A DNA stretch of 8,493 bases from a virus (taxonomy: Duplodnaviria; Heunggongvirae; Uroviricota; Caudoviricetes). A program made the translations under genes and the position numbers. Each line of letters opens with the position of its first letter. Position 1 is the first letter of the stretch. Positions 1 through 8,493 of this stretch are shown piece by piece. A model generated the notes under the pieces. It saw only the letters and a program-made list of their open reading frames with translations, did not search any database and had not been told where the DNA came from. The stretch covers positions 1 through 8,493 of the IMG/VR virus record IMGVR_UViG_2703718808_000008. One strand, given 5' to 3'.

Positions 1-354
1 TGCTGTTATATATAACTTATTTTGAATAACATATTGATTTAATTATATTTTCAATTAAGCCCGAAGTGCAAAAAAACTCAAAATAACTACACCAGTGACT
101 ACACCGTTCGGCGCACTGTATGAAACAACGTGGAACAAATAGGCACAAGAAATATAAAGGCGGGTAATTTTAAGGGGGCGTTGCTGTCGATATGGGGATT
201 CCCATATCGGGAACCCTACCGGAATTTTTTTCCGGTTAACAGTTAATCAGGCTGGTGGGCTTTACCTGTTCGGTAGGTGTTATGATTATCGTAATACCTT
301 TCCCTCAATGGGGTAAAAGCATCAACCGTAACGAAAGTCGTTATGGTTGCCGCC

Positions 355-467
355 GATACCCCAAATTTGGGTATCACGAGTAAGCCCCAAAATCTGGGTG
401 TTGCTCTTACTACCCAAACTACGGGTAGTTTCCGTAATTTCATGGTCGAGTTGCAGATCTGCAACTC
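355..467. other. Cluster of palindromic/hairpin motifs in non-coding DNA
   Basis: Three tandem units CCCAAA-N-GGGT at 355-375 (perfect 14-bp palindrome ACCCAAATTTGGGT), 385-400 and 411-427, then a perfect 20-bp palindrome GAGTTGCAGATCTGCAACTC at 448-467 with central GATC. Overlapping ORFs lack plausible RBS. Confidence 0.5.
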
Positions 468-505
468 CCCCATCAACCACAGGCGAATTTCCGCCTTCGG
501 TCATT

Positions 506-720
506 CCTTAATCATCTGCGTAATCATAATGATTATTCAGCCAGCGCAATTTTGCGCTTTGCTTTAAGTTCAACCAGTTACCGCCAGCTTCCCCCAATGG
601 GGGATTGTGGAATAATCAACGGTTTAGGCCTTAATCATCTGCGTAAACATAAGTAATCATAATGATCATTCAGCCAGCGCAATTTTGAGCTTTGCTTTAA
701 TCTCAGTGAGTTACCGCCGC
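506..720. repeat. Direct repeat, two copies of an ~85-95 bp unit (506-588 and 629-720)
   Basis: Both copies share CCTTAATCATCTGCGTA...ATCATAATGAT(T/C)ATTCAGCCAGCGCAATTTTG(C/A)GCTTTGCTTTAA...AGTTACCGCC; copy 2 has a ~10-bp insertion and includes the stop codon of the 711-992 ORF. Confidence 0.8.
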
Positions 721-992
721 AACCGTTCCGGCTTCTTCCAGTGGTACGTGATTTTCTCCTTCTCCCGATACATCTCCACGCGGCGACGGTATGCCAGCAA
801 CTCAAGGACTCTGGTTCGTATGTTGCGCATATCCACGCCGTTAAGCTCAATACCATCACGGCGCATCACCTCAGCAACAACACGCGCATAATTTTCAGCG
901 GTCACGCTGTCCGGTTGCGTGCCCTGTTCGTCATGCTGCTGGCTGATTCCGGTAACGCGGCGGATTAATCGCAGTAGTTCGGCTTCTGTCAT
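711..992 (-). CDS. Hypothetical protein, 93 aa
   Basis: ORF with G-rich SD (GATGGGGG) just upstream of ATG at 992; lies between cos and the direct repeats. No family recognised. Confidence 0.5.
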   Translation of the reverse strand: MTEAELLRLIRRVTGISQQHDEQGTQPDSVTAENYARVVAEVMRRDGIELNGVDMRNIRTRVLELLAYRRRVEMYREKEKITYHWKKPERLRR

Positions 993-1046
993 TGTGCCCC
1001 CATCGTTCTGATAGCCTGGTGTCGTCGGGTCCTTCCTGGAATTATG

Positions 1047-1140
1047 GCCCGTTACGGGGCGGCGACCTCGCGGTTTTTATCTGTTTATGAAAATTTTCCG
1101 GCAAAAGTCAGATCCGTTCTTCTTCTCTGTAACAGACTGT
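1047..1140 (+). other. Lambda-type cos site (cosN with 12-nt cohesive-end sequence at 1057-1068, plus cosB-like segment)
   Basis: 1051-1073 reads GTTACG GGGCGGCGACCT CGCGG, matching the recalled lambda right-end/left-end junction; downstream TTTATGAAAATTTTCCGG and CCGTTCTTCTTC match recalled lambda cosB-proximal sequence. Confidence 0.75.
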
Positions 1141-1218
1141 TTAACAATGAAAATATTAAAAAAAGAAAGGATCTGACACGAGGCATTTTAGCCAGAAAAT
1201 GCCATTATCAGATCCTTT
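1140..1218 (-). terminator. Intrinsic terminator downstream of TerS-like gene (nested hairpin, possibly bidirectional)
   Basis: Outer inverted repeat AAAGGATCTGA (1166-1176) / TCAGATCCTTT (1208-1218) enclosing inner GGCATTTT (1182-1189) / AAAATGCC (1196-1203); on the minus strand followed by CTTTTTTTAATATTTT. Confidence 0.6.
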
Positions 1219-1247
1219 CTCATTTTTGTTCAATAATTGCGCTTCTG

Positions 1248-1790
1248 TTACTTGCCTTTCTTCTGTAGCAACTTTTCCGGTACGTTTCCGGTTGTTTCTT
1301 TCAAGTAATCAGCCAGTATCTGTGGGAGGTTGTCGGCAACTCTGGCACTGGCATTACAGGCTTTAACCACTTCCCTTTTAAGCCTGTCCAGCATGGCGGG
1401 GGTAATCTGTGGGAAGCTCCTTTGCATAGTAAGCGGGAGGCTGTCCATGATTGATGAAATCTGACTCGCCAGCTTTGAAAGCGCGTACAGGCAAAACTCA
1501 GTATCAATCACGTCACCGCGATCGCGCTCGTTTTTAAGTTCCTGCGCCTCCGCCTGTGCTGTCAGTAATCTGATCCTGACTCGTAAGAGTTCATCATCAT
1601 CAATATCGCCTTTGTCGTTTGTAAGCTGGCTAATTGCATTGTTAACCCTATTGTCTATCACGCTGGCAACATCATAAAACGCCTCACGGCCTTTACGTTC
1701 AACGGGAGTCACTCCCCACTTGTCGAACGCTGTCGCACTTACACGGCAGCTTTTCGCCATGTTTTTTTTGTTCATCAGGTGCGATTTCAT
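1248..1790 (-). CDS. Terminase small subunit homologue, lambda Nu1-like (possibly a satellite packaging-redirection protein)
   Basis: 180-aa ORF collinear with recalled lambda Nu1: N-terminal DNA-binding region (MNKKN..., G-KG-E--YD-A-VI) and central block LTAQAEAQELKNERD...TEFCLYALSKLA...I-S-LPL--QR-FP. Start uncertain (1790 or 1775), no strong SD. Confidence 0.85.
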   Translation of the reverse strand: MKSHLMNKKNMAKSCRVSATAFDKWGVTPVERKGREAFYDVASVIDNRVNNAISQLTNDKGDIDDDELLRVRIRLLTAQAEAQELKNERDRGDVIDTEFCLYALSKLASQISSIMDSLPLTMQRSFPQITPAMLDRLKREVVKACNASARVADNLPQILADYLKETTGNVPEKLLQKKGK

Positions 1791-1913
1791 TAATACACCA
1801 ACTTAATTACTGCTTCAGGTTGGTGTATTGTTTGCATCTTTCCCTTTTCATTCATAAAGATAGAGCAAACAACAAAACCACCACCACCCCCCTGAAAAGG
1901 CTCATAAATAGCG

Positions 1914-1968
1914 AAAACGCGCGAGGTCGTCGCCCCGTAACGGGTCCATATGCCGGAAAGGACCCGTA
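1914..1968 (-). other. Second, degenerate cos-like sequence in inverted orientation upstream of the TerS-like gene
   Basis: Reverse complement reads GGGTCCTTTCCGGCATATGGACCCGTTACGGGGCGACGACCTCGCGCGTTTTCGCTATTTATGA, about 85 percent identical to 1024-1078 and matching recalled lambda GTTTTCGCTATTTATGA; two substitutions in the cohesive-end/cosN core. Confidence 0.55.
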
Positions 1969-1991
1969 AAAAAAGCCGGATTTCTCCGGCC
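1968..1991 (-). terminator. Intrinsic terminator after the capsid operon
   Basis: Minus strand reads GCCGGA-GAAA-TCCGGC followed by TTTTTTT, immediately after the stop of the 1996-2409 ORF. Confidence 0.7.
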
Positions 1992-1995
1992 TGTC

Positions 1996-2409
1996 TCAGA
2001 TGGTTTTCAGTATGCGATCGATGTCGCCGTCATCGCCCGGGTTTCTGCCATCGTATGCCATGCCAGCTGATACGGCTTGCGGGCTGTGCATGTCCATAAA
2101 GTTTTCAAAGGCTGCGGTAAGCTCCGGCGCAACCTTCGGACGTTCCTGCTCTATGGTCATGCTAAGGATGCTTTTAGCCGTACCAACATCGATACAAGGC
2201 ACGTTTGCCATTGCACGTAACAGCGGCTGATAGTCGCCAGATTCATCAAGCGCCATAATCGCATCAGCGCGCGGCTTGTCCTGCTCTTCCAGTTTGTTAA
2301 GTTGATATATGGCCTCGTAGGTTGATAACCCTCTGTCAGCCATTGCCCGCGCTTCGGCTTTAAATTTACTCGCCAGCGGTAGCGTCATGATGCTTTCATT
2401 CGTTGCCAT
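1996..2409 (-). CDS. Hypothetical protein, 137 aa, last gene of the capsid operon
   Basis: SD AGGGGGAA upstream of ATG at 2409; starts 13 bp after the decoration gene stop and is followed by a terminator. No family recognised. Confidence 0.7.
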   Translation of the reverse strand: MATNESIMTLPLASKFKAEARAMADRGLSTYEAIYQLNKLEEQDKPRADAIMALDESGDYQPLLRAMANVPCIDVGTAKSILSMTIEQERPKVAPELTAAFENFMDMHSPQAVSAGMAYDGRNPGDDGDIDRILKTI

Positions 2410-2421
2410 CGTTCCCCCTGC

Positions 2422-2757
2422 TTATCGGGCCAGCGGCTGAACGGATACGCCAGACCCCGCAAAGGCAGCGCATTTTTTCGCGTCAGTGTCGGCGCTCTCA
2501 GGCCAGTTTACGGCAGCGATATTAAATATCCCCGTCTTGTAACACTGTGCTGATTTCTGCGTCGACGTGTCCACGGGGTACGAAGTCAGATAAACAGCCT
2601 TGCCAGATTCCTGACCATCCCACGGCTTAAACTCGCCATTGTCCGCCAGCATCAGCGGGGTAAATTCCTGAATAACGCCAGCATCAGCGGCAAAATGTAC
2701 CAGCGTCGTGGCGACCTGCTGACTGCCTGCGAATAACTCAATGTATGGAGTGTCCAT
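2422..2757 (-). CDS. Head decoration protein, lambda gpD-like
   Basis: 111-aa ORF sharing blocks with recalled lambda gpD (TPLML, WDG, YK-G-F, WPE, KK-AFAG); SD GGGGGA; 11-bp gap after the capsid gene stop. Confidence 0.85.
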   Translation of the reverse strand: MDTPYIELFAGSQQVATTLVHFAADAGVIQEFTPLMLADNGEFKPWDGQESGKAVYLTSYPVDTSTQKSAQCYKTGIFNIAAVNWPESADTDAKKCAAFAGSGVSVQPLAR

Positions 2758-2768
2758 AGAATCCCCCG

Positions 2769-3824
2769 TTAACCAATTTTGACGGTAACAAATTTGCGAA
2801 TATCTGCCGGTACCGGCTGCGGTGCGCTGTGTGTCTGCACGTACTCAATCGCCGGATCGCCGTCCTCAATCCAGTTTTTCGGGTAGTACATGTTTTGCGT
2901 TGCGCCCGTTCTGACCGCTTCCTGATCCATAATCGCACCATAGGCCACCAGGCCTTTATTGTTGGTGTTACCCAGGACCAGTAAATCAGGCTCAAGGAAA
3001 TATTTTTCGGTGCCGTCGCTGTCAGCGTATTTGCCGGAATAGACGATAAGGGCAATATCGCCCAGATAGCCTTTAAAGCTCACCACTTCGCCCAGGTTTT
3101 TACAGGCCAGTTCTGCGGCGGATTCTGAACCACGGGAAAGATCGTACAGCTCACGGAATTTTTTAAAGCTGCGTAACGTGCGCCATACCTCAGCGCCCAT
3201 AATCATGACGTTTGCGGGGCAACCAGCCTGATCTGCATAAAGCTCGATGTCATAGATTGGGTCGTGCATCTCTTTATCCTGCTCGGACCATTTTTTACCC
3301 TTGGCCTGCTCTATGATGCAGTTTTCCGGTATTTTCCAGTCTATTTCATAGCGTTCTATGCCTTCGCCCTCAATAATGTTTTTTCCGGTCGTTATCGCAT
3401 TCACCGCCAGCCATTCCACGCGCGCTTTAATGGCGTTTACCTGGCGGCGCATGTTGCCAGTAATCAGGCGCATACGTCGGTAGGTAGGGTCGTTAAGCTG
3501 TGCCGGATCTTCTCCAGCCATGCGCATGATGGTTTTTGTTGGATCGATTTCGTGCTTTGGCTTCATGTAGCCAGGTTTAATCGTGCTGGTTTCGTATCCT
3601 TTATCGCGCTGTACCTGGCTGCCAACCATAGGCGAACAAAACGCCGACATGGTGACTTCTTCAATGTCCAGGGTATCCAGCATGATGTTTTGGGTGCTGA
3701 ATGTCGCCACGTTCGGGAAAAACAGCGTGGTAAACAGCGGACTGAATTTAAATTCCGCAATATCCCCGCGATTCAGGTACGCAAAAAGCTGGTTAGTGTT
3801 AAGTGCCGTTGCTTTGCCTGCCAT
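2769..3824 (-). CDS. Major capsid protein, lambda gpE-like
   Basis: 351-aa ORF sharing many collinear blocks with recalled lambda gpE (FKF-PLF-LFF, PGY-KPKHE, DP-YRR-R-I-NMR, RSFK, RGS-S, VS-KG-GD-A-VYSG-Y, VLGNT, YPKNW, GDPA); SD GGGGG; start overlaps upstream stop (TAATG). Confidence 0.92.
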   Translation of the reverse strand: MAGKATALNTNQLFAYLNRGDIAEFKFSPLFTTLFFPNVATFSTQNIMLDTLDIEEVTMSAFCSPMVGSQVQRDKGYETSTIKPGYMKPKHEIDPTKTIMRMAGEDPAQLNDPTYRRMRLITGNMRRQVNAIKARVEWLAVNAITTGKNIIEGEGIERYEIDWKIPENCIIEQAKGKKWSEQDKEMHDPIYDIELYADQAGCPANVMIMGAEVWRTLRSFKKFRELYDLSRGSESAAELACKNLGEVVSFKGYLGDIALIVYSGKYADSDGTEKYFLEPDLLVLGNTNNKGLVAYGAIMDQEAVRTGATQNMYYPKNWIEDGDPAIEYVQTHSAPQPVPADIRKFVTVKIG

Positions 3825-4030
3825 TATTCACCCCCATAATTTTTATGCATCCCAAGCGCCGCAAGTAAATAAGAGCGCACAAGTGAACCTATCGACGGCT
3901 CCGGCGTCATCAGCGGATCCAGTCCAGCCGCTACGCCAGCCTCATAGTTTTTTTTGTGGCGCTGCTTGAGCACCTCCACGATTTCGGGGCTTATGTACAC
4001 GGTCACCCCGCCTTTTTTCTCTTCTGCCAT
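3824..4030 (-). CDS. Hypothetical 68-aa protein, first gene of the capsid operon
   Basis: ATG at 4028-4030 (MAEEKK...) preceded by SD AGAGGAA; the track's earlier start at 4063 lies inside the operator palindrome. Stop coupled to the capsid gene start. No family recognised. Confidence 0.6.
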   Translation of the reverse strand: MAEEKKGGVTVYISPEIVEVLKQRHKKNYEAGVAAGLDPLMTPEPSIGSLVRSYLLAALGMHKNYGGE

Positions 4031-4060
4031 AGTCAGAAATTCCTCTTTGACTAAAAAAAT

Positions 4061-4114
4061 CATAACTGGATGTTCATCCAGTTATGATTATAATCATGAT
4101 TGCATTTTGTGCAA
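4061..4114 (-). promoter_or_regulatory. Putative sigma70-type promoter of the capsid operon with overlapping operator palindrome
   Basis: Minus-strand -35 TTGCAC (plus coords 4109-4114), 16-nt spacer, -10 TATAAT (4087-4092); perfect 12-2-12 inverted repeat CATAACTGGATG-TT-CATCCAGTTATG at 4061-4086 around the predicted start, and 14-bp palindrome ATGATTATAATCAT at 4085-4098. Confidence 0.4.
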
Positions 4115-4192
4115 TGATGTTGAGTTGTGTTGCAAATTATGAAATTATTATCCCGATCATGTGTGTCAGTGCACCAAAAAAACCTCATATGC

Positions 4193-4234
4193 AAAAGCCC
4201 GATAAGTTTCCTCTGACCTTATCGGGCTTTTTTA
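4193..4234 (+). terminator. Intrinsic terminator, likely bidirectional
   Basis: GCCCGATAAG (4197-4206) / CTTATCGGGC (4218-4227) stem flanked by AAAA upstream and TTTTTT downstream. Confidence 0.6.
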
Positions 4235-4408
4235 TCTGCCTGCAAAGATGTCGAACAAAAATTAACCACAACCATCATCTTTTTTGCATCAAAACAATTA
4301 AAAACAATAAATTACGCTCATGATGATGATGACGATAAAATCACAAAAATGCGCTTTTTTCCGCGCCGACCCGCCTCGTGGACAGGCCCCCCCGCCAGGA
4401 GTACCTAC

Positions 4409-4431
4409 AAAAAAGCCGGATTTTCTCCGGC
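4409..4431 (-). terminator. Intrinsic terminator after the SSB-like gene
   Basis: Minus strand reads GCCGGA-GAAAA-TCCGGC then TTTTTT, 8 bp after the SSB-like stop; near-identical to the terminator at 1968-1991. Confidence 0.7.
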
Positions 4432-4439
4432 CATGATGT

Positions 4440-4850
4440 TCAGAAAGGAATATTGTCACCGTAGGGGTCATCGCCTCCAGCTGGTGGCTGATTACCCTGT
4501 GTGCCTGTGGTTTTGCGTCTGTTCCCGCCAGGACGTGCCGCACGGGCACTGATTACGCTGTCTGCAATAACCTGATAACCCTGCCGCGTTTCCCCGTTCT
4601 GTCCGGTCCACTGGCTTATCTGCATCACGCCAGATATGCTGGCAACGTCGCCTTTTTGATGTTTAGCCAGGAAGTCGGCCTGCTTACCAAATGCCATCAC
4701 CGATAGCCATAACGTAGCCGTTCCGTCATCTGCCTGGCTGCACGGAAGGGGGACCGCCATACGCGCCAGCGTCATCGGTGTGCCCTTGCTGGTCTGTTTT
4801 ACCTGCGGGTCGTCCACCAGCCGCCCGTAAGCGGCTATCTGTGCTGTCAT
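4440..4850 (-). CDS. ssb: Single-stranded DNA-binding protein homologue
   Basis: 136-aa ORF with OB-fold-like blocks resembling recalled E. coli SSB (GRL-DDP-V, W--V--FGK, W-G), Gly/Pro-rich linker and C-terminal ...DNIPF resembling the SSB tip DDDIPF; SD GGAGAGGTGG; start overlaps upstream stop (ATGA). Confidence 0.75.
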   Translation of the reverse strand: MTAQIAAYGRLVDDPQVKQTSKGTPMTLARMAVPLPCSQADDGTATLWLSVMAFGKQADFLAKHQKGDVASISGVMQISQWTGQNGETRQGYQVIADSVISARAARPGGNRRKTTGTQGNQPPAGGDDPYGDNIPF

Positions 4851-5161
4851 GATTCCACCTCTCCGGTTTTAACGTTGATGGTTGTTACCTGTTCCGCTTC
4901 GGCAATCTCCCGTTCTGTCAGCGTGGCAAAGTTTGCCGCCGCTGTGGTCATGAATGCGCTTATCAGTTCGGGATGTTCCTTCGCGTATCCTTCCCGCGTG
5001 TGGCGGTCTATCGTTCTGATTGCCACCTTTAAGGTGTGCTCAGTCATGTCTAACGCTTTATATTTTGGCTCTGTTCTGTCTCTGCGAATTTTGGTCATTT
5101 GTCGCCCCTGATTCATGTTTTCGGCTGGCATGTTTGTTAAGTGATTTTGATGTATGCGCAT
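4847..5161 (-). CDS. Hypothetical protein, 104 aa
   Basis: Strong SD GAGGGGGTGA upstream of ATG at 5161; coupled to the SSB-like gene; directly downstream of the iteron region. No family recognised. Confidence 0.6.
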   Translation of the reverse strand: MRIHQNHLTNMPAENMNQGRQMTKIRRDRTEPKYKALDMTEHTLKVAIRTIDRHTREGYAKEHPELISAFMTTAAANFATLTEREIAEAEQVTTINVKTGEVES

Positions 5162-5208
5162 TTATTTTCACCCCCTCGTTTAAAAAGTTTTTAGTTGTGC
5201 CTCCCCCC

Positions 5209-5431
5209 CTCTACCCATCTACCCGAATGCTCATCATGTCAGTAATGGCGCGGCTTTCAGCGGGTAGATAGCTTTTTGGGCTCCTCTACCTGCCGTCTAC
5301 CCTGCTACCTGAAACTGATAAAATCAGGTAGAAGAGGTAGAGAGCTTTTATTAGCCTTCCACCTGGCCCTCTACCCACTTATCATGTTGAATAATATACG
5401 TTTATTTCATTCAGGTAGATGGGGTAGAGGG
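5209..5431. repeat. Iteron array, putative origin of replication
   Basis: At least 11 copies of (C)TCTACC(C/T) in both orientations (5209-5224, 5262-5269, 5283-5311, 5325-5344, 5366-5377, 5412-5430) with an AT-rich stretch at 5376-5411, directly downstream of the primase gene. Confidence 0.7.
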
Positions 5432-5444
5432 CTTTTACAAAAAA

Positions 5445-7193
5445 TTATAAAAACGCGTCGCAATCGTCTGTTGTAATTGCGTTGGTCTGCGTTACTCCCT
5501 TAACTTTTCGCGTAATATATTCATGCCCGTAAACTTTCGCCGCTGGCTTCATGGCCTTGCTGAACTCAGCCACGTTTAGCGGTTTGCTCCTGCCTGCGTA
5601 TGCCATAAACGCCAGATAGACGCGGTAAAGGCTGTTCCTGGTCGTGTACTTCACTGAATCACCACCGCCACCCATCATCAGGCCGCGCGCTTCCTCCAGA
5701 AAATTCAGGAACTGGCAAAACTCAATAACCGGATCCGTCTGTTGCTTTATCGCCAGTGCTTCATCTCCGTCACGCTGTTCCAGTAGTAAAGCCCGTGCCT
5801 TCTCAGGGTCGGTAAAGTTCGCCAGCAAGCGGCGGATAATAACGGGGATTTCAGCCGCGATCTTTTCCGGTAGTTCCCTGTCTTTTTCGGCCTCACTGAC
5901 GATATTGTCGAAACGGAAAATCACGCGACGACGTGCCACACCTCCGGCCCGTTCGGTGAATATCATCGGGTTATTGTTGGTCGCCAGCACCACCGCCCTG
6001 ATTACCGCCGTGAAACGCTTTTCATATTTCGGGTTTATTTCCACGGGGTCGCCGCCCGTGATTTTCTTGATGCCCGTTCCTTCGCCTGTATATTTCGGCT
6101 GGTCTGCCAGGACGATAAGACGACTCCCGACAACCTGCGCACGTCCACCAGCATCATCAAGCGATGTCATTTCAGCGCTTACCGTGTTCTGTTTCCCTGC
6201 CAGAAGGCTGGCTATGTGCGTGAATGTACTTTTACCGCTCCCGCCATCTCCTGTGGCCTCAATAAACATCTGCCAGTCGTACCGGTTCGCCATAATCATG
6301 TACAGCGCGGCACATATACGCATCATCTTGTGCGGGTCTTTTCCGGCTGCGTGCTCAAGCCATTTATGAAAGTTTGGCGCGTTGTCGCAAATGTTCTCCC
6401 CTGGTGCTGGTGGCGTGTACTCAATGCCGTTGTGCGTGGTGATCCAGTTCTCCGGCGTGTGCGGGGAAAATTCCCCCGTTTTCAGGTCAAGTGCACCATT
6501 GGCGAACGGCAACAAATCGCCGGACGGCTCGCCCATTGGTTCGGCAATAACTTTTAACGCTTCCACGGCGTTATTGATTACGCGTTTGCTGAAAGTGGCC
6601 CTGTGCTCTGAATAGATCGCCACCATTTCGCGGCTCAGCTCCATTGTGCTGACCGGACACCATACCCCGCCGCGCCATACGTGAACGATTTCACTTTCCG
6701 GATGCACACAAACGCCATCAAAGCGCTCGGCAAGCAGCTGCGCGCGCTCACTGTCTGCCATTTGTGCCAGTTGCGTATTTTTCTGCTCCGGCATGGTAAG
6801 CCCTGCGGCAATATTTTCACGCTCAGCATTCAGATAGCGCCGCCAGTTTTCACACTTCTGGACGTGCATTCCTTCGTGGTAAAAATTTGCGTCCTGAATA
6901 TCTGCCGCCGCCAGCTTCTGACCAATCTTTTTGGTCTCCACTAAATCCAGTTCTCCGGCCTGGTACAGCCTTACGCGCTTTTTCCCATCCGGAACAATTT
7001 TCAGCGCATCAAGTTCGGCAAGCTGATTTGGCCCAAGCCACACAGGCGGCACATTATCGCCGGATGCGGGGCCATCCTGCTCCTGCCATTGTTTCGCGTG
7101 CGACCAGGCATCACTACCCGCAAAGATAATTACCTCTGTGTCTTTGTGTTTTATTCCGCGTGGCTGTTTTTTTACGTTCGGTGCCAGTTTCAT
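5445..7193 (-). CDS. Primase/helicase, P4 alpha (D5-like) family
   Basis: 582-aa ORF with Walker A GDGGSGKST and the size and layout of P4-family primase-helicase proteins; SD AGGGGT; start overlaps upstream ORF stop (ATGA). Confidence 0.9.
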   Translation of the reverse strand: MKLAPNVKKQPRGIKHKDTEVIIFAGSDAWSHAKQWQEQDGPASGDNVPPVWLGPNQLAELDALKIVPDGKKRVRLYQAGELDLVETKKIGQKLAAADIQDANFYHEGMHVQKCENWRRYLNAERENIAAGLTMPEQKNTQLAQMADSERAQLLAERFDGVCVHPESEIVHVWRGGVWCPVSTMELSREMVAIYSEHRATFSKRVINNAVEALKVIAEPMGEPSGDLLPFANGALDLKTGEFSPHTPENWITTHNGIEYTPPAPGENICDNAPNFHKWLEHAAGKDPHKMMRICAALYMIMANRYDWQMFIEATGDGGSGKSTFTHIASLLAGKQNTVSAEMTSLDDAGGRAQVVGSRLIVLADQPKYTGEGTGIKKITGGDPVEINPKYEKRFTAVIRAVVLATNNNPMIFTERAGGVARRRVIFRFDNIVSEAEKDRELPEKIAAEIPVIIRRLLANFTDPEKARALLLEQRDGDEALAIKQQTDPVIEFCQFLNFLEEARGLMMGGGGDSVKYTTRNSLYRVYLAFMAYAGRSKPLNVAEFSKAMKPAAKVYGHEYITRKVKGVTQTNAITTDDCDAFL

Positions 7194-7489
7194 TTTTTAC
7201 CCCTGAATACGTTAAGCATCTTTTTTATTTCCTGAATATTGGCGCGTGCTTTCTCCCTGCTGGTGGGCACGTTACGCGGTACGGCCTGCACAAGAGAAAA
7301 ATCACGGTCGAACTGATAAACAGGCATCACGCAATCATATTCGTAGCCTTCACGACGGTAAGTTACGCGCCGTTCCTCCACGCCCTTAATCATTACCGTG
7401 CCGCCGTACTGGTCGCGGTAAATATCACCGCGCATGAATTTAGTGCGAGTTTTGCCACTGGCAGTTAAGCCAGAATATTTAAGTTTCAT
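7190..7489 (-). CDS. Hypothetical protein, 99 aa, coupled to primase
   Basis: SD GGAGAA upstream of ATG at 7489; stop overlaps the primase start. No family recognised. Confidence 0.65.
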   Translation of the reverse strand: MKLKYSGLTASGKTRTKFMRGDIYRDQYGGTVMIKGVEERRVTYRREGYEYDCVMPVYQFDRDFSLVQAVPRNVPTSREKARANIQEIKKMLNVFRGKK

Positions 7490-7494
7490 TATTT

Positions 7495-7725
7495 TTATTC
7501 TCCGGTGTGGGGCGCGTTATTATTTTCGTGAATTGCCATTGCCTTATCCAGTTCATCAATAACAGGCGATAGTAATGTCTGAACGGCGGCAAGCATTAAT
7601 GACGAAGATTCTTCTCCAGCTTCCGTTGCTTCAATTAATTTAATTAACAACACATTCATTTCGCGTGCTTTAATTAATGCGTTTTCAGAGTGGATTAATA
7701 CTTCAAAAGGGATTTTATGCATCAC
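7495..7725 (-). CDS. Hypothetical small protein, about 75 aa
   Basis: GTG at 7725 (SD AAGGGAG, 7-nt spacing) or ATG at 7722; 5-bp gap to the downstream ORF. Predicted helical, no family recognised. Confidence 0.55.
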   Translation of the reverse strand: MMHKIPFEVLIHSENALIKAREMNVLLIKLIEATEAGEESSSLMLAAVQTLLSPVIDELDKAMAIHENNNAPHTGE

Positions 7726-7945
7726 AAATTTTCTCCCTTATTCTTTTAATGTCCTCATTAAGGATGTCTGTAACTTTTATCAGCGAGTTTTTGGCAATTA
7801 TTTTTATTGTTTTAAGTTTTCTTTTGTCGTGCTCCGACTGTGATTTTCTCTCCATGCTCTCCACCATGTGGGTAACATCAACGAGCGCACGTATCAGTAT
7901 TTGCATTGCTTCTTCTGCTGCGTCCGGTGTGGTTTTATTGTGCAT
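7715..7945 (-). CDS. Hypothetical small protein, 76 aa, first gene of the replication operon
   Basis: ATG at 7943-7945 preceded by SD AGGGGGA (the track's 7987 start is a GTG without SD); overlaps the next ORF by 11 nt. Confidence 0.5.
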   Translation of the reverse strand: MHNKTTPDAAEEAMQILIRALVDVTHMVESMERKSQSEHDKRKLKTIKIIAKNSLIKVTDILNEDIKRIREKICDA

Positions 7946-8057
7946 AGGTTTCCCCCTGGCGAATACGGGCGGCAAATACAGCAACACAACCGGACGGGCA
8001 ACGGCTACGCGCTTCGCGTTCCGTCCAGGCGGTTACGTGGATGATTTGAGATTCTCC

Positions 8058-8101
8058 GGCACTCAGTGCCAGAAAACGCCACACAAAGGCCGTTTGTGTG
8101 T
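8058..8101. promoter_or_regulatory. Two adjacent palindromes in the divergent control region (candidate operators)
   Basis: GGCACT-C-AGTGCC at 8058-8070 and CACACAAA-GGCCG-TTTGTGTG at 8081-8101, upstream of the minus-strand replication operon. Confidence 0.3.
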
Positions 8102-8209
8102 GTGCTAGTCGTGGGGTATGATTTACGGCAACCATAAATTTACCTCTCTATAGTGTTTGTGGTTAGACGCCCTGCATGTGTTCCAGCACTGTGGGGCGTT
8201 GTTTTTTTG

Positions 8210-8279
8210 GTGCAAGTCACCTTGAAATCTAGGTTACTTTTAGGTGACTTGCACTTCAAGTCTTTTTTTATTTTTTTTT
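8210..8279 (+). other. Long inverted repeat followed by a T-run (operator or plus-strand terminator)
   Basis: Perfect 13-bp arms GTGCAAGTCACCT (8210-8222) / AGGTGACTTGCAC (8242-8254), interleaved second pair CTTGAA/TTCAAG, then T-rich tract 8263-8279; about 40 bp upstream of the plus-strand gene start. Confidence 0.4.
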
Positions 8280-8320
8280 CTCCGTATACTGAACACCACC
8301 TAACAGTAAGGAGAACAGAG

Positions 8321-8493
8321 ATGCCAACAGGTACAACCAACAACAAGTCACAACAAAAAACTGCTAGAGTACCTCTAGACGTTTTAAGCGAAATGAATTT
8401 GGTAAAAGAAGAAAACGAAACAGACGCACAATTTATCGTTACTGCCATGCGCGGCGAAATCAAACGCCGCCAGCGTCGCAAGGCCAAAGAATC
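8321..8493 (+). CDS. Partial CDS (5' end only) of unknown function, divergent from the replication operon
   Basis: ATG at 8321 preceded by SD AAGGAG at 7-nt spacing; frame open to the window end (MPTGTTNNKSQQKTARVPLDVLSEMNLVKEENETDAQFIVTAMRGEIKRRQRRKAKE...); noticeably more A-rich than the minus-strand genes. Confidence 0.55.
   Translation, partial: MPTGTTNNKSQQKTARVPLDVLSEMNLVKEENETDAQFIVTAMRGEIKRRQRRKAKE

Follow-up and report, generated by a model that had tools for sequence, protein, structure and literature searches.

What controls the replication operon at the right-hand end of IMG/VR record IMGVR_UViG_2703718808_000008 (Caudoviricetes), and what is the gene that diverges from it there? 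The window, that is the whole stretch of 8,493 nucleotides analysed (positions 1 to 8,493 of that record), ends in a region that a sequence-only reading had described as a divergent control region, with two adjacent palindromes, an inverted repeat with 13-bp arms, a long T tract and a plus-strand gene that might be either an island repressor or an accessory cargo gene of separate origin. Our analysis favours, with a probability of roughly 0.6, a full repression model in which 8094-8500 forms a two-layer regulatory switch of a Gram-negative phage-inducible chromosomal island (PICI). The plus-strand gene would encode a small repressor of the YlcI type that acts on the promoter of the operon, and a small antisense RNA resembling SymR would guard the first gene of that operon, which is Icd-like. 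The module is a P22 immI-like, SymR-like variant and not cargo.

The plus-strand gene begins with the ATG at 8321, rather than at 8322 as first read, 7 nt after a Shine-Dalgarno sequence (AAGGAG, 8308-8313, plus strand) that is as strong as had been claimed. Codons 1-57 of 59 lie within the window (8321-8493), and the stop is found 7 nt past its end. The sequence-only reading had proposed that a frame terminating shortly beyond the window would speak against the gene. The frame does terminate there, but the protein is nonetheless full-length, and since 59 residues is the full length for the YlcI/YnfO family the criterion was ill-posed. Two of the checks that it had suggested gave a result: the downstream sequence, taken from a 100%-identical E. 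coli record, gave the full ORF and a complete 59-residue protein, and the protein search matched the product to the YlcI/YnfO family (NF041551) with 61.7 bits against a cut-off of 30, over residues 9-50. A variant from another locus (L002) scored 60.6 bits, and 119 close relatives are spread across the Enterobacterales. No match at 1e-5 was obtained with tblastn against 50,697 phage records. In the literature YlcI, YnfO and DUF3950 were met in gene lists only and no functional study was found, many subscription-journal papers being outside the coverage of the search; in one satellite paper a YlcI-type protein figures, beside Icd, among the accessory genes of capsid-forming PICIs under the name "prophage-associated protein".

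An AlphaFold2 model of the protein (pLDDT 83.7), calculated for the 57-residue fragment in the window with an alignment of 44 sequences, has an extended N-terminus followed by helices at residues 19-28 and 35-56. This β-α-α arrangement with an N-terminal strand is that of a ribbon-helix-helix (Arc-like) protein, and such a fold is predicted here. By sequence there was no significant match to a curated ribbon-helix-helix family or to a solved member. Arc did appear in register (R-x-P-x-[DE]-V) in a profile search of the PDB sequences at a non-significant E of 0.73-0.84, and the PHROG 'Arc-like' family was matched at E 0.088 by the L002 variant only. Pfam, searched at E up to 0.1, returned no family for either this protein or the Icd-like ORF.

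The module was followed through related loci collected in two scans: 34 from GTDB species representatives (Cedecea, Citrobacter, Pectobacterium, Dickeya, Serratia, Morganella, Proteus, Xenorhabdus, Photorhabdus, Yersinia and others) and 80 contigs from a viral catalogue, mostly of 7-20 kb. The loci fetched numbered 116, and several of the counts given below refer to subsets with unique regions (e.g. 64, 96, 100 or 103). An Icd-like gene lies divergent and immediately upstream in at least 13 of the 34 GTDB loci by tblastn, and on inspection the Icd-like motif is present in the first minus-strand ORF of most loci.

The true intergenic region is 8136-8320. Within it, upstream of the ylcI-like gene, a repeat unit of about 11 bp and of the form GTG-N5-CAC is present in three copies, which are treated here as putative operators. 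Two of them belong to the inverted repeat, whose arms are indeed perfect over 13 bp (8210-8222 and 8242-8254, with a 19-nt spacer). A repeat of this length is beyond anything in 300 of 300 dinucleotide-preserving shuffles of 7900-8493, where the longest perfect repeat had a mean of 7.2 and a maximum of 11. The left arm contains O1 (GTGCAAGTCAC, 8210-8220, in inverted orientation) and the right arm O2 (GTGACTTGCAC, 8244-8254); O3 (CTGAACACCAC, 8289-8299) is a third copy that the sequence-only reading did not contain. Across the 96 unique loci with three sites, O2 and O3 are spaced by 44-46 bp, nearly always 45 as in the window, and O1 and O2 mostly by 22-25 or 34-36 bp. In about 45 loci the copies are all direct repeats. 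Because direct repeats cannot pair with one another, the units would be protein-binding sites rather than an RNA hairpin. In five loci (L016, L017, L024, L025 and L028) the sites are inverted with 22-bp spacing, and the family members there are 98-103 residues long, with additional helical sequence at the C-terminus (LLSSLDAL...EELQQRK) reminiscent of Mnt's tetramerisation tail.

The three matching sites sit on two back-to-back promoters, which bears out the description as a divergent control region. Both promoters are proposed from conservation across the loci and not from a generic sigma-70 scan. The predicted minus-strand promoter of the Icd-like gene and the replication operon (8231-8259) has a -35 TTGAAG (8259-8254), a 17-nt spacer and a -10 TAACCT (8236-8231). 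Of 100 unique loci, 97 have its -35, as TTGA[ACG]G, at a constant distance from O2, and 97 have a TAnnnT hexamer 17 or 18 nt downstream of that -35. O2 lies in the spacer, overlapping the -35 by 1 nt, and O1 at about +4 to +14, so that the two bracket the -10; in most loci O1 is at or just after the minus-strand start. On the plus strand the predicted promoter of the ylcI-like gene has a -10 TATACT (8285-8290). Among 103 unique loci this hexamer reads TATACT in 83 and TATAAT in 11, at an invariable distance of 36 nt from the ATG, and across loci the hexamer that precedes it by 17 nt is rich in T (CTTTTT, GTTTTA, CTTTTA and the like). O3 starts inside this -10 and covers the predicted start. 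Between the two promoters lies the T tract, which is as long as had been stated (T7-A-T9, 8263-8279); it spans the -35 region of the plus-strand promoter, and we infer that it forms a UP-element-like A tract just upstream of the minus-strand -35.

The N5 core of the sites varies between cassettes, is constant across the three sites within one cassette and tracks the predicted β-strand of the protein one to one. The class of the window combines the strand motif QQKTAR[VI] with the site GTGACTTGCAC. In a class that extends from Citrobacter to Xenorhabdus QQLNARF goes with GTGAATCGCAC, while QALKARV is found with GTGTGGCCCAC, QKLQARA with GTGGAnTCCAC, QKMSARV with TGGCACCCA, QMTTVRI with GTGAAATACAC, KKLEARV with GTGTCAGCCAC and QS[IV]TVRVL with GTGTCTTACA. 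Mutual information with the core is highest for residue 14 (2.40 bits, its full entropy), followed by residues 12 (2.02) and 13 (1.92); R16 is invariant, as are the GTG/CAC flanks. Arc contacts bases through Q9, N11 and R13, and residues 12, 14 and 16 of the YlcI-like protein align with these three, in an alignment that is itself non-significant (E 0.7-0.8). A concerted change of three sites would require a binder specific to the cassette, and linkage does not explain it. We consider it highly probable that the YlcI-like protein binds the three sites.

A given protein/site class can be combined with more than one RNA hairpin variant and more than one Icd subtype, and the unit that stays together is therefore the sites with about the first 45 codons of the gene. 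The islands of E. coli OkiPb01677 and JNE181771 have an identical AlpA (WP_000953271.1) and Icd-like proteins that are 93% identical, yet their site cores and YlcI N-termini differ. This pair argues against either AlpA or Icd as the specificity partner. AlpA was considered as the binder of the three sites and was rejected, as it is identical in two islands with different site cores. Of the two roles the sequence-only reading had allowed for the plus-strand gene, that of island repressor gains from the predicted ribbon-helix-helix fold, the three sites and the co-variation of core and residues.

The second layer of the switch would be an RNA. A SymR-like cis-antisense RNA of about 78 nt is predicted on the plus strand at 8130 to about 8208 (64.7 bits with R1, a covariance model of our own), running from A8130 to about 8205-8208 and ending in a good U run (T8202-T8208). 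Neither this RNA gene nor the plus-strand hairpin with its U run (8166-8208) was part of the sequence-only reading. In stem-loop 1, where 8130-8139 is paired to 8155-8164, CAU (8133-8135) is part of the 5' arm and the anti-Shine-Dalgarno sequence CCTCTC (8143-8148) is in the loop. A linker GGTTAGA leads to stem-loop 2 (8166-8200), after which comes the U run. The predicted promoter (8094-8122, plus strand) lies inside the Icd-like ORF, with a -35-like TTGTGT (8094-8099), a 17-nt spacer and a -10 TATGAT (8117-8122), and would place the start at 8130, 3 nt before the CAT at 8133-8135. Between O1 and the Icd-like start every locus has the same conserved block, made up of a TAnnnT within the ORF, the CAT in the 5' arm of the first stem, a loop with CCUC or CUCC (anti-Shine-Dalgarno), the linker GGUUAGA, a long second hairpin and a U-rich tail. 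The TAnnnT hexamer was found in 63 of 64 unique loci, preceding the start-codon CAT by 10 nt in 44 and by 4 nt in 15.

The structure is well conserved. RNAalifold, applied to 50 non-redundant sequences, gave 23 pairs of which 18 have compensatory changes. The paired cells amount to 96.3% against 84.6% in shuffles, none of 500 shuffles reached the observed value on any of five measures, and controls slid along the alignment had 34-46% paired. The strand of the RNA is the plus strand, and this is settled by the G-U pairs. Of 69 unique variants of hairpin 2, 67 form the more stable fold on the plus strand (-22.6 kcal/mol, compared with -16.6 on the minus strand; 171 and 26 G-U pairs), and so do 67 of 68 unique variants of stem 1 (-11.3 and -5.1 kcal/mol; 185 and 27 G-U pairs). 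The whole element is 13.3 kcal/mol more stable on the plus strand, of which composition alone would account for 3.2, and its mean z against shuffles is -5.7.

The relation to SymR was found in both directions. At a permissive threshold Rfam matched SymR to 8130-8203 with 25.9 bits (E 0.15) and to a Pectobacterium locus (L006) with 35.5 bits (E 0.0031). Conversely R1, built from 50 sequences with SymR excluded, aligned K-12 SymR over all 81 positions from its annotated start, with 32.6 bits and an E of 2.5e-6, E-values from R1 being rough. R1 also detected the element upstream of ylcI in 100 of 100 loci searched. The two-hairpin structure of SymR is thus present, as is its location opposite the 5' end and start codon of the target with a predicted promoter inside the target ORF. 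The target, on the other hand, is Icd-like, and no CTG-N10-CAG box was found in 8136-8320. Apart from SymR, Rfam at E up to 1 gave no match to C4, IsrK or any other family at the site, in the window and seven related loci; other matches elsewhere (XIST intron, mir-1284, GcvB, Spy1186876, manA) were set aside as noise. We think it very probable that the antisense RNA exists. A further structured RNA, Rfam int-alpA (RF02996), scores above its gathering threshold in two of the loci (L006 847-913 and L029 5501-5569, both on the minus strand, with 60.9 and 42.1 bits), and there are therefore at least two small structured RNAs at the regulatory end of those islands.

The replication operon opens with the Icd-like ORF (66 residues, minus strand, 7935-8135). 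On NF033153 (phage_ICD_like) this ORF reaches 64.7 bits where the cut-off is 25, and the E. coli record of 100% identity names it a host cell division inhibitor Icd-like protein. The product of the ORF is probably toxic. The two adjacent palindromes reported earlier do exist (GGCACT-c-AGTGCC at 8058-8070 and CACACAAA-ggccg-TTTGTGTG at 8080-8100), although they are not intergenic as had been thought; they are within the Icd-like coding sequence, where they encode the stretches HTQTAFVW and LALSA. On the minus strand palindrome 2 is followed by GCGTTTTCTG and has a terminator-like appearance. It would fold as a perfect 8-bp hairpin (8100-8080) and then GCGUUUUCUG, 35 nt into the ORF, much like a terminator or attenuator, and the right arm of the hairpin shares bases with the -35-like hexamer for the antisense RNA. 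This hairpin was considered as a general translation-coupled attenuator and rejected, for it is restricted to a single Icd subtype (MVAVNH...HTQTAFVWRF), in about 9 of 100 unique ORFs. In three loci (L074, L047 and L013) the first minus-strand ORF opposite the SymR-like RNA is not Icd-like and has a different N-terminus; hence the first gene that comes after the RNA/promoter cassette can vary, symE of K-12 being another case.

In the integrated state, the YlcI-like protein would sit on O1 and O2 and occlude the minus-strand promoter, and with both sites occupied the whole operon, the Icd-like gene and the primase included, would be shut off. Binding to O3 would provide feedback on the protein's own promoter, probably weak in the window because O3 is degenerate here. 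The antisense RNA would be transcribed from a promoter that the protein does not cover. Its full complementarity to the start of the Icd-like mRNA, from the 5' leader through the Shine-Dalgarno sequence to the AUG, would let it pair with the leader, of about 89 nt, of any transcript that escapes, block the ribosome site and destabilise the leaky transcript, as has been shown for SymR on symE. By analogy with icd-ant of P1, it is a speculative extension that the RNA may also lower the expression of the genes behind the Icd-like gene. AlpA is the activator of such islands and the helper phage induces alpA (PMC6092414). Transcription of alpA would run antisense through the ylcI-like gene into the control region, and an override of the switch by such read-through is conceivable.

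Other accounts of the region have to be weighed against this switch. The inverted repeat and the T tract might be an RNA terminator or attenuator separating the divergent units rather than a protein site: the 13-bp arms could form a long hairpin, and a scan picked out a terminator-like hairpin at 8246-8262, directly before the T tract on the plus strand. The tract begins 8 nt past the 13-bp stem, however, so that the two do not make up a canonical terminator; other cassettes do not preserve the small hairpin; in about half of the related loci the homologous copies stand as direct repeats, unable to pair; a third copy lies at a fixed 45 bp on the other promoter; and the conserved plus-strand hairpin with a U run is further left, at 8166-8208. 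This account has very little probability. A somewhat similar verdict falls on the view that the hairpins act within the minus-strand mRNA leader, as a stabiliser or processing site, with no separate antisense RNA. It would agree with the fact that 8130-8208, provided that the minus-strand promoter is correctly predicted, is also transcribed as the leader of the Icd-like message, and that Watson-Crick covariation alone is blind to strand, but the excess of G-U pairs and the more stable fold on the plus strand, the TAnnnT hexamer at a symR-like distance, the U run after the hairpin on the plus strand only and the match to SymR in both directions make it the faintest of possibilities.

The plus-strand gene could instead be cargo that arose separately, or could resemble the antitoxin in a toxin-antitoxin pair, with no part in the control of the operon. 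It is A-rich, as the sequence-only reading had pointed out (A 0.40, where the coding strands of the other genes have 0.23-0.32), and lower in G+C, the cassette is mosaic with a break in homology at 8137, ribbon-helix-helix proteins are common as antitoxins and in E. coli a small gene of 67-75 residues follows the ylcI-like gene. The A-richness, though, stems from a protein sequence rich in Lys, Asn, Gln and Glu, and the gene has the same position and the same promoter geometry in all 116 loci fetched, across many genera, with three sites on the promoters that track its predicted reading residues. The idea of an accessory cargo gene therefore had to be given up, and we consider this whole alternative quite improbable. 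The 67-75-residue gene, looked at as an obligatory partner of ylcI, was rejected, being present in only 33 of 116 loci. It is also possible to suppose that the protein binds the sites as an activator or switch factor for the plus-strand operon only, leaving the minus strand under AlpA alone with the RNA as the sole local negative control. Over-expression of AlpA alone induces a related island (PMC6092414), and a passage in one report describes ribbon-helix-helix proteins, AmrZ for example, that both activate and repress (PMC3325190); O2 in the -35/-10 spacer and O1 at about +4 to +14, by contrast, are in positions that by the logic of promoter occlusion would normally exclude RNA polymerase, which renders this supposition unlikely.

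Several observations count against the two-layer switch itself. Site binding, repression as its effect, synthesis of the RNA and override by helper phage or AlpA are steps that we infer, and such islands have been described as AlpA-activated and transcribed in one direction (PMC6092414). The minus-strand -10 of the window, TAACCT, matches at only 3 of 6 positions, and because of this the generic sigma-70 scan of 7900-8493, which detected no promoter, did not flag it. O3 in the window differs from O2 at 4 of 9 compared positions, where most cassettes have 0-2 differences, and autoregulation through it may be weak or absent in this cassette. The correlation between protein and sites could in part reflect co-inheritance, as both fit into about 170 bp and travel together as a cassette. 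With regard to the RNA, the Rfam SymR score is far below the gathering threshold (25.9 against 61), so that membership by score is not reached, and the U tract after hairpin 2 is interrupted in many loci (UUCGCAUUU), where the 3' end may be formed by something other than simple intrinsic termination.

The wider setting of the switch is that of a satellite. The long ORFs of the window are all on the minus strand and include a primase (5445-7193), a single-stranded DNA-binding protein (SSB, 4440-4850), an E-like capsid gene (2769-3824) and terS (1248-1790), together with head-tail connector-like, decoration-like and DUF4222 genes and several small ORFs. Gram-negative and capsid-forming PICIs were recognised by their gene content, namely an integrase, alpA, a replication gene of the primase type and phage-derived packaging genes in an island of about 10-17 kb; the window itself carries the primase, SSB, E-like capsid, decoration and terS genes. 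An island of about 11 kb in tqsA of E. coli JNE181771 is 98% identical to the whole window. As this island continues with an integrase and an AlpA-family gene (Pfam Phage_AlpA, E 5e-18), the window too is a Gram-negative PICI. An AT-rich trough (4051-4350, G+C 0.33) separates the capsid module from the SSB gene and contains a strong hairpin with a T run near 4195-4231 (AAAAGCCCGATAAG...CTTATCGGGCTTTT); it may be a terminator or promoter boundary between early and packaging genes. At the equivalent place OkiPb01677 has a PerC-family gene. Weak Rfam matches to GcvB and Spy1186876 in the trough are probably noise.

In the best whole-window relatives, at 98% identity, homology breaks sharply at 8137, exactly at the start codon of the Icd-like gene, and returns at about 8425, in the C-terminal third of the ylcI-like gene. 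From these limits, what has been exchanged is the body of the RNA together with the sites and promoters and that part of the YlcI-like protein which would read DNA. The last 594 bases of the window are, in turn, 100% identical to a different island, that of E. coli OkiPb01677, which carries the same control cassette along with portal, protease and TerL genes and, because of these, is of the capsid-forming type. Since homology stops at 8137 and the end of the window matches another island, the control region is an exchangeable cassette between satellites; the mosaicism at 8137 is a swap of specificity cassette and not an import of cargo. DNA similar to 7900-8493 is present in 886 of 5426 complete E. 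coli genomes. About 400-800 nt past the right end of the window, the 100%-identical E. coli record (L001) has a second, tandem control module at 12890-13290. It consists of a truncated Icd-like start (AGCCAT...), a SymR-like element (12970-13052, 77.3 bits with R1), a palindromic site AATGTGTATATACACAT that differs from those in the window and another ribbon-helix-helix gene of 59 residues (13107-13286; PHROG 'Arc-like repressor', E 1.5e-6). An annotated ORF of 75 residues lies between the modules and a paralogue of it after the second, and the arrangement looks like a scar of recombination between satellites.

Comparison with known systems shows where the module is familiar and where it departs from them. 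With SymR/SymE of E. coli K-12 (RF01809) it shares a cis-antisense RNA of about 77 nt opposite the 5' end of a harmful first gene, a -10 embedded in the target ORF with a start 3 nt before the start-codon CAT (for symR, TAGAAT, 7 nt and AGTCAT), two hairpins, a UUGUGRUUAG linker and a GUGUU...GCAC apex. The symR -10 was mutated experimentally and drives a 77-nt RNA that represses symE (Kawano et al. 2007, PMC1891008). There the target is SymE, with an AbrB fold, and its promoter has LexA boxes; here the target is Icd-like, the promoter has sites of ribbon-helix-helix type and the setting is a mobile phage satellite. The immI region of P22 (Mnt, Arc and sar RNA) follows a similar logic, but there is no significant sequence relation (E 0.7-0.8), it has one compact operator in place of three dispersed sites, its RNA targets the arc-ant junction instead of the ribosome site of the first gene, and the window has no antirepressor gene.

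In P1 the control of icd translation by a small RNA sets the expression of the genes behind icd. The immI regions of P1 and P7 (c4 RNA, icd, ant) thus resemble the module in placing a first gene of the Icd type under translational control by a small RNA, whereas C4 is a same-strand transcript whose target sites are repeated and are acted on in trans. YlcI (DLP12) and YnfO (Qin) of K-12 belong to the same NCBIfam family and have the same R-x-P ... F-x-x-W/F-I/V pattern. The K-12 ylcI gene (L118 6252-6840, DLP12), unlike the one here, stands beside the prophage cos site (complement GGGCGGCGACCT), divergent from nohD, with no Icd-like neighbour and no such array of sites; for this reason the lambdoid-prophage branch of the YlcI family is placed in a packaging and not a replication-control context. 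Stl and Rpr of Gram-positive PICIs are likewise encoded divergently from the replication operon at the same map position, but these are helix-turn-helix proteins with no relation to the YlcI-like one, a few hundred residues long where the latter has 59. No prior description of a module combining protein and RNA was found in the literature, where many subscription-journal papers lie outside the coverage.

Gram-negative PICIs have been reported to be without a known repressor and to rely on the activator AlpA (PMC6092414). The window and about 115 related loci have a conserved divergent gene with a predicted repressor architecture at the map position of Stl and Rpr, and if the protein acts as predicted, the way in which these satellites stay silent becomes directly testable. 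As a tentative generalisation, for which the odds are slightly unfavourable, many Gram-negative and capsid-forming PICIs might carry an unrecognised immunity-type switch, in which a 59-residue ribbon-helix-helix protein is the master repressor and an RNA of the SymR family guards the first gene; with equal reserve, the repressor might come in a dozen or more protein/operator specificity classes. Were this true, the 'missing repressor' of the Gram-negative satellites would be supplied, the coexistence of several satellites in a cell without cross-talk would be explained, and symR-symE of K-12 would be a relative, possibly a domesticated remnant, of a satellite control module. The natural specificity classes would be ready-made orthogonal repressor/operator pairs, and the SymR family would extend from one chromosomal locus to a widespread module of mobile elements that genome annotation has missed.

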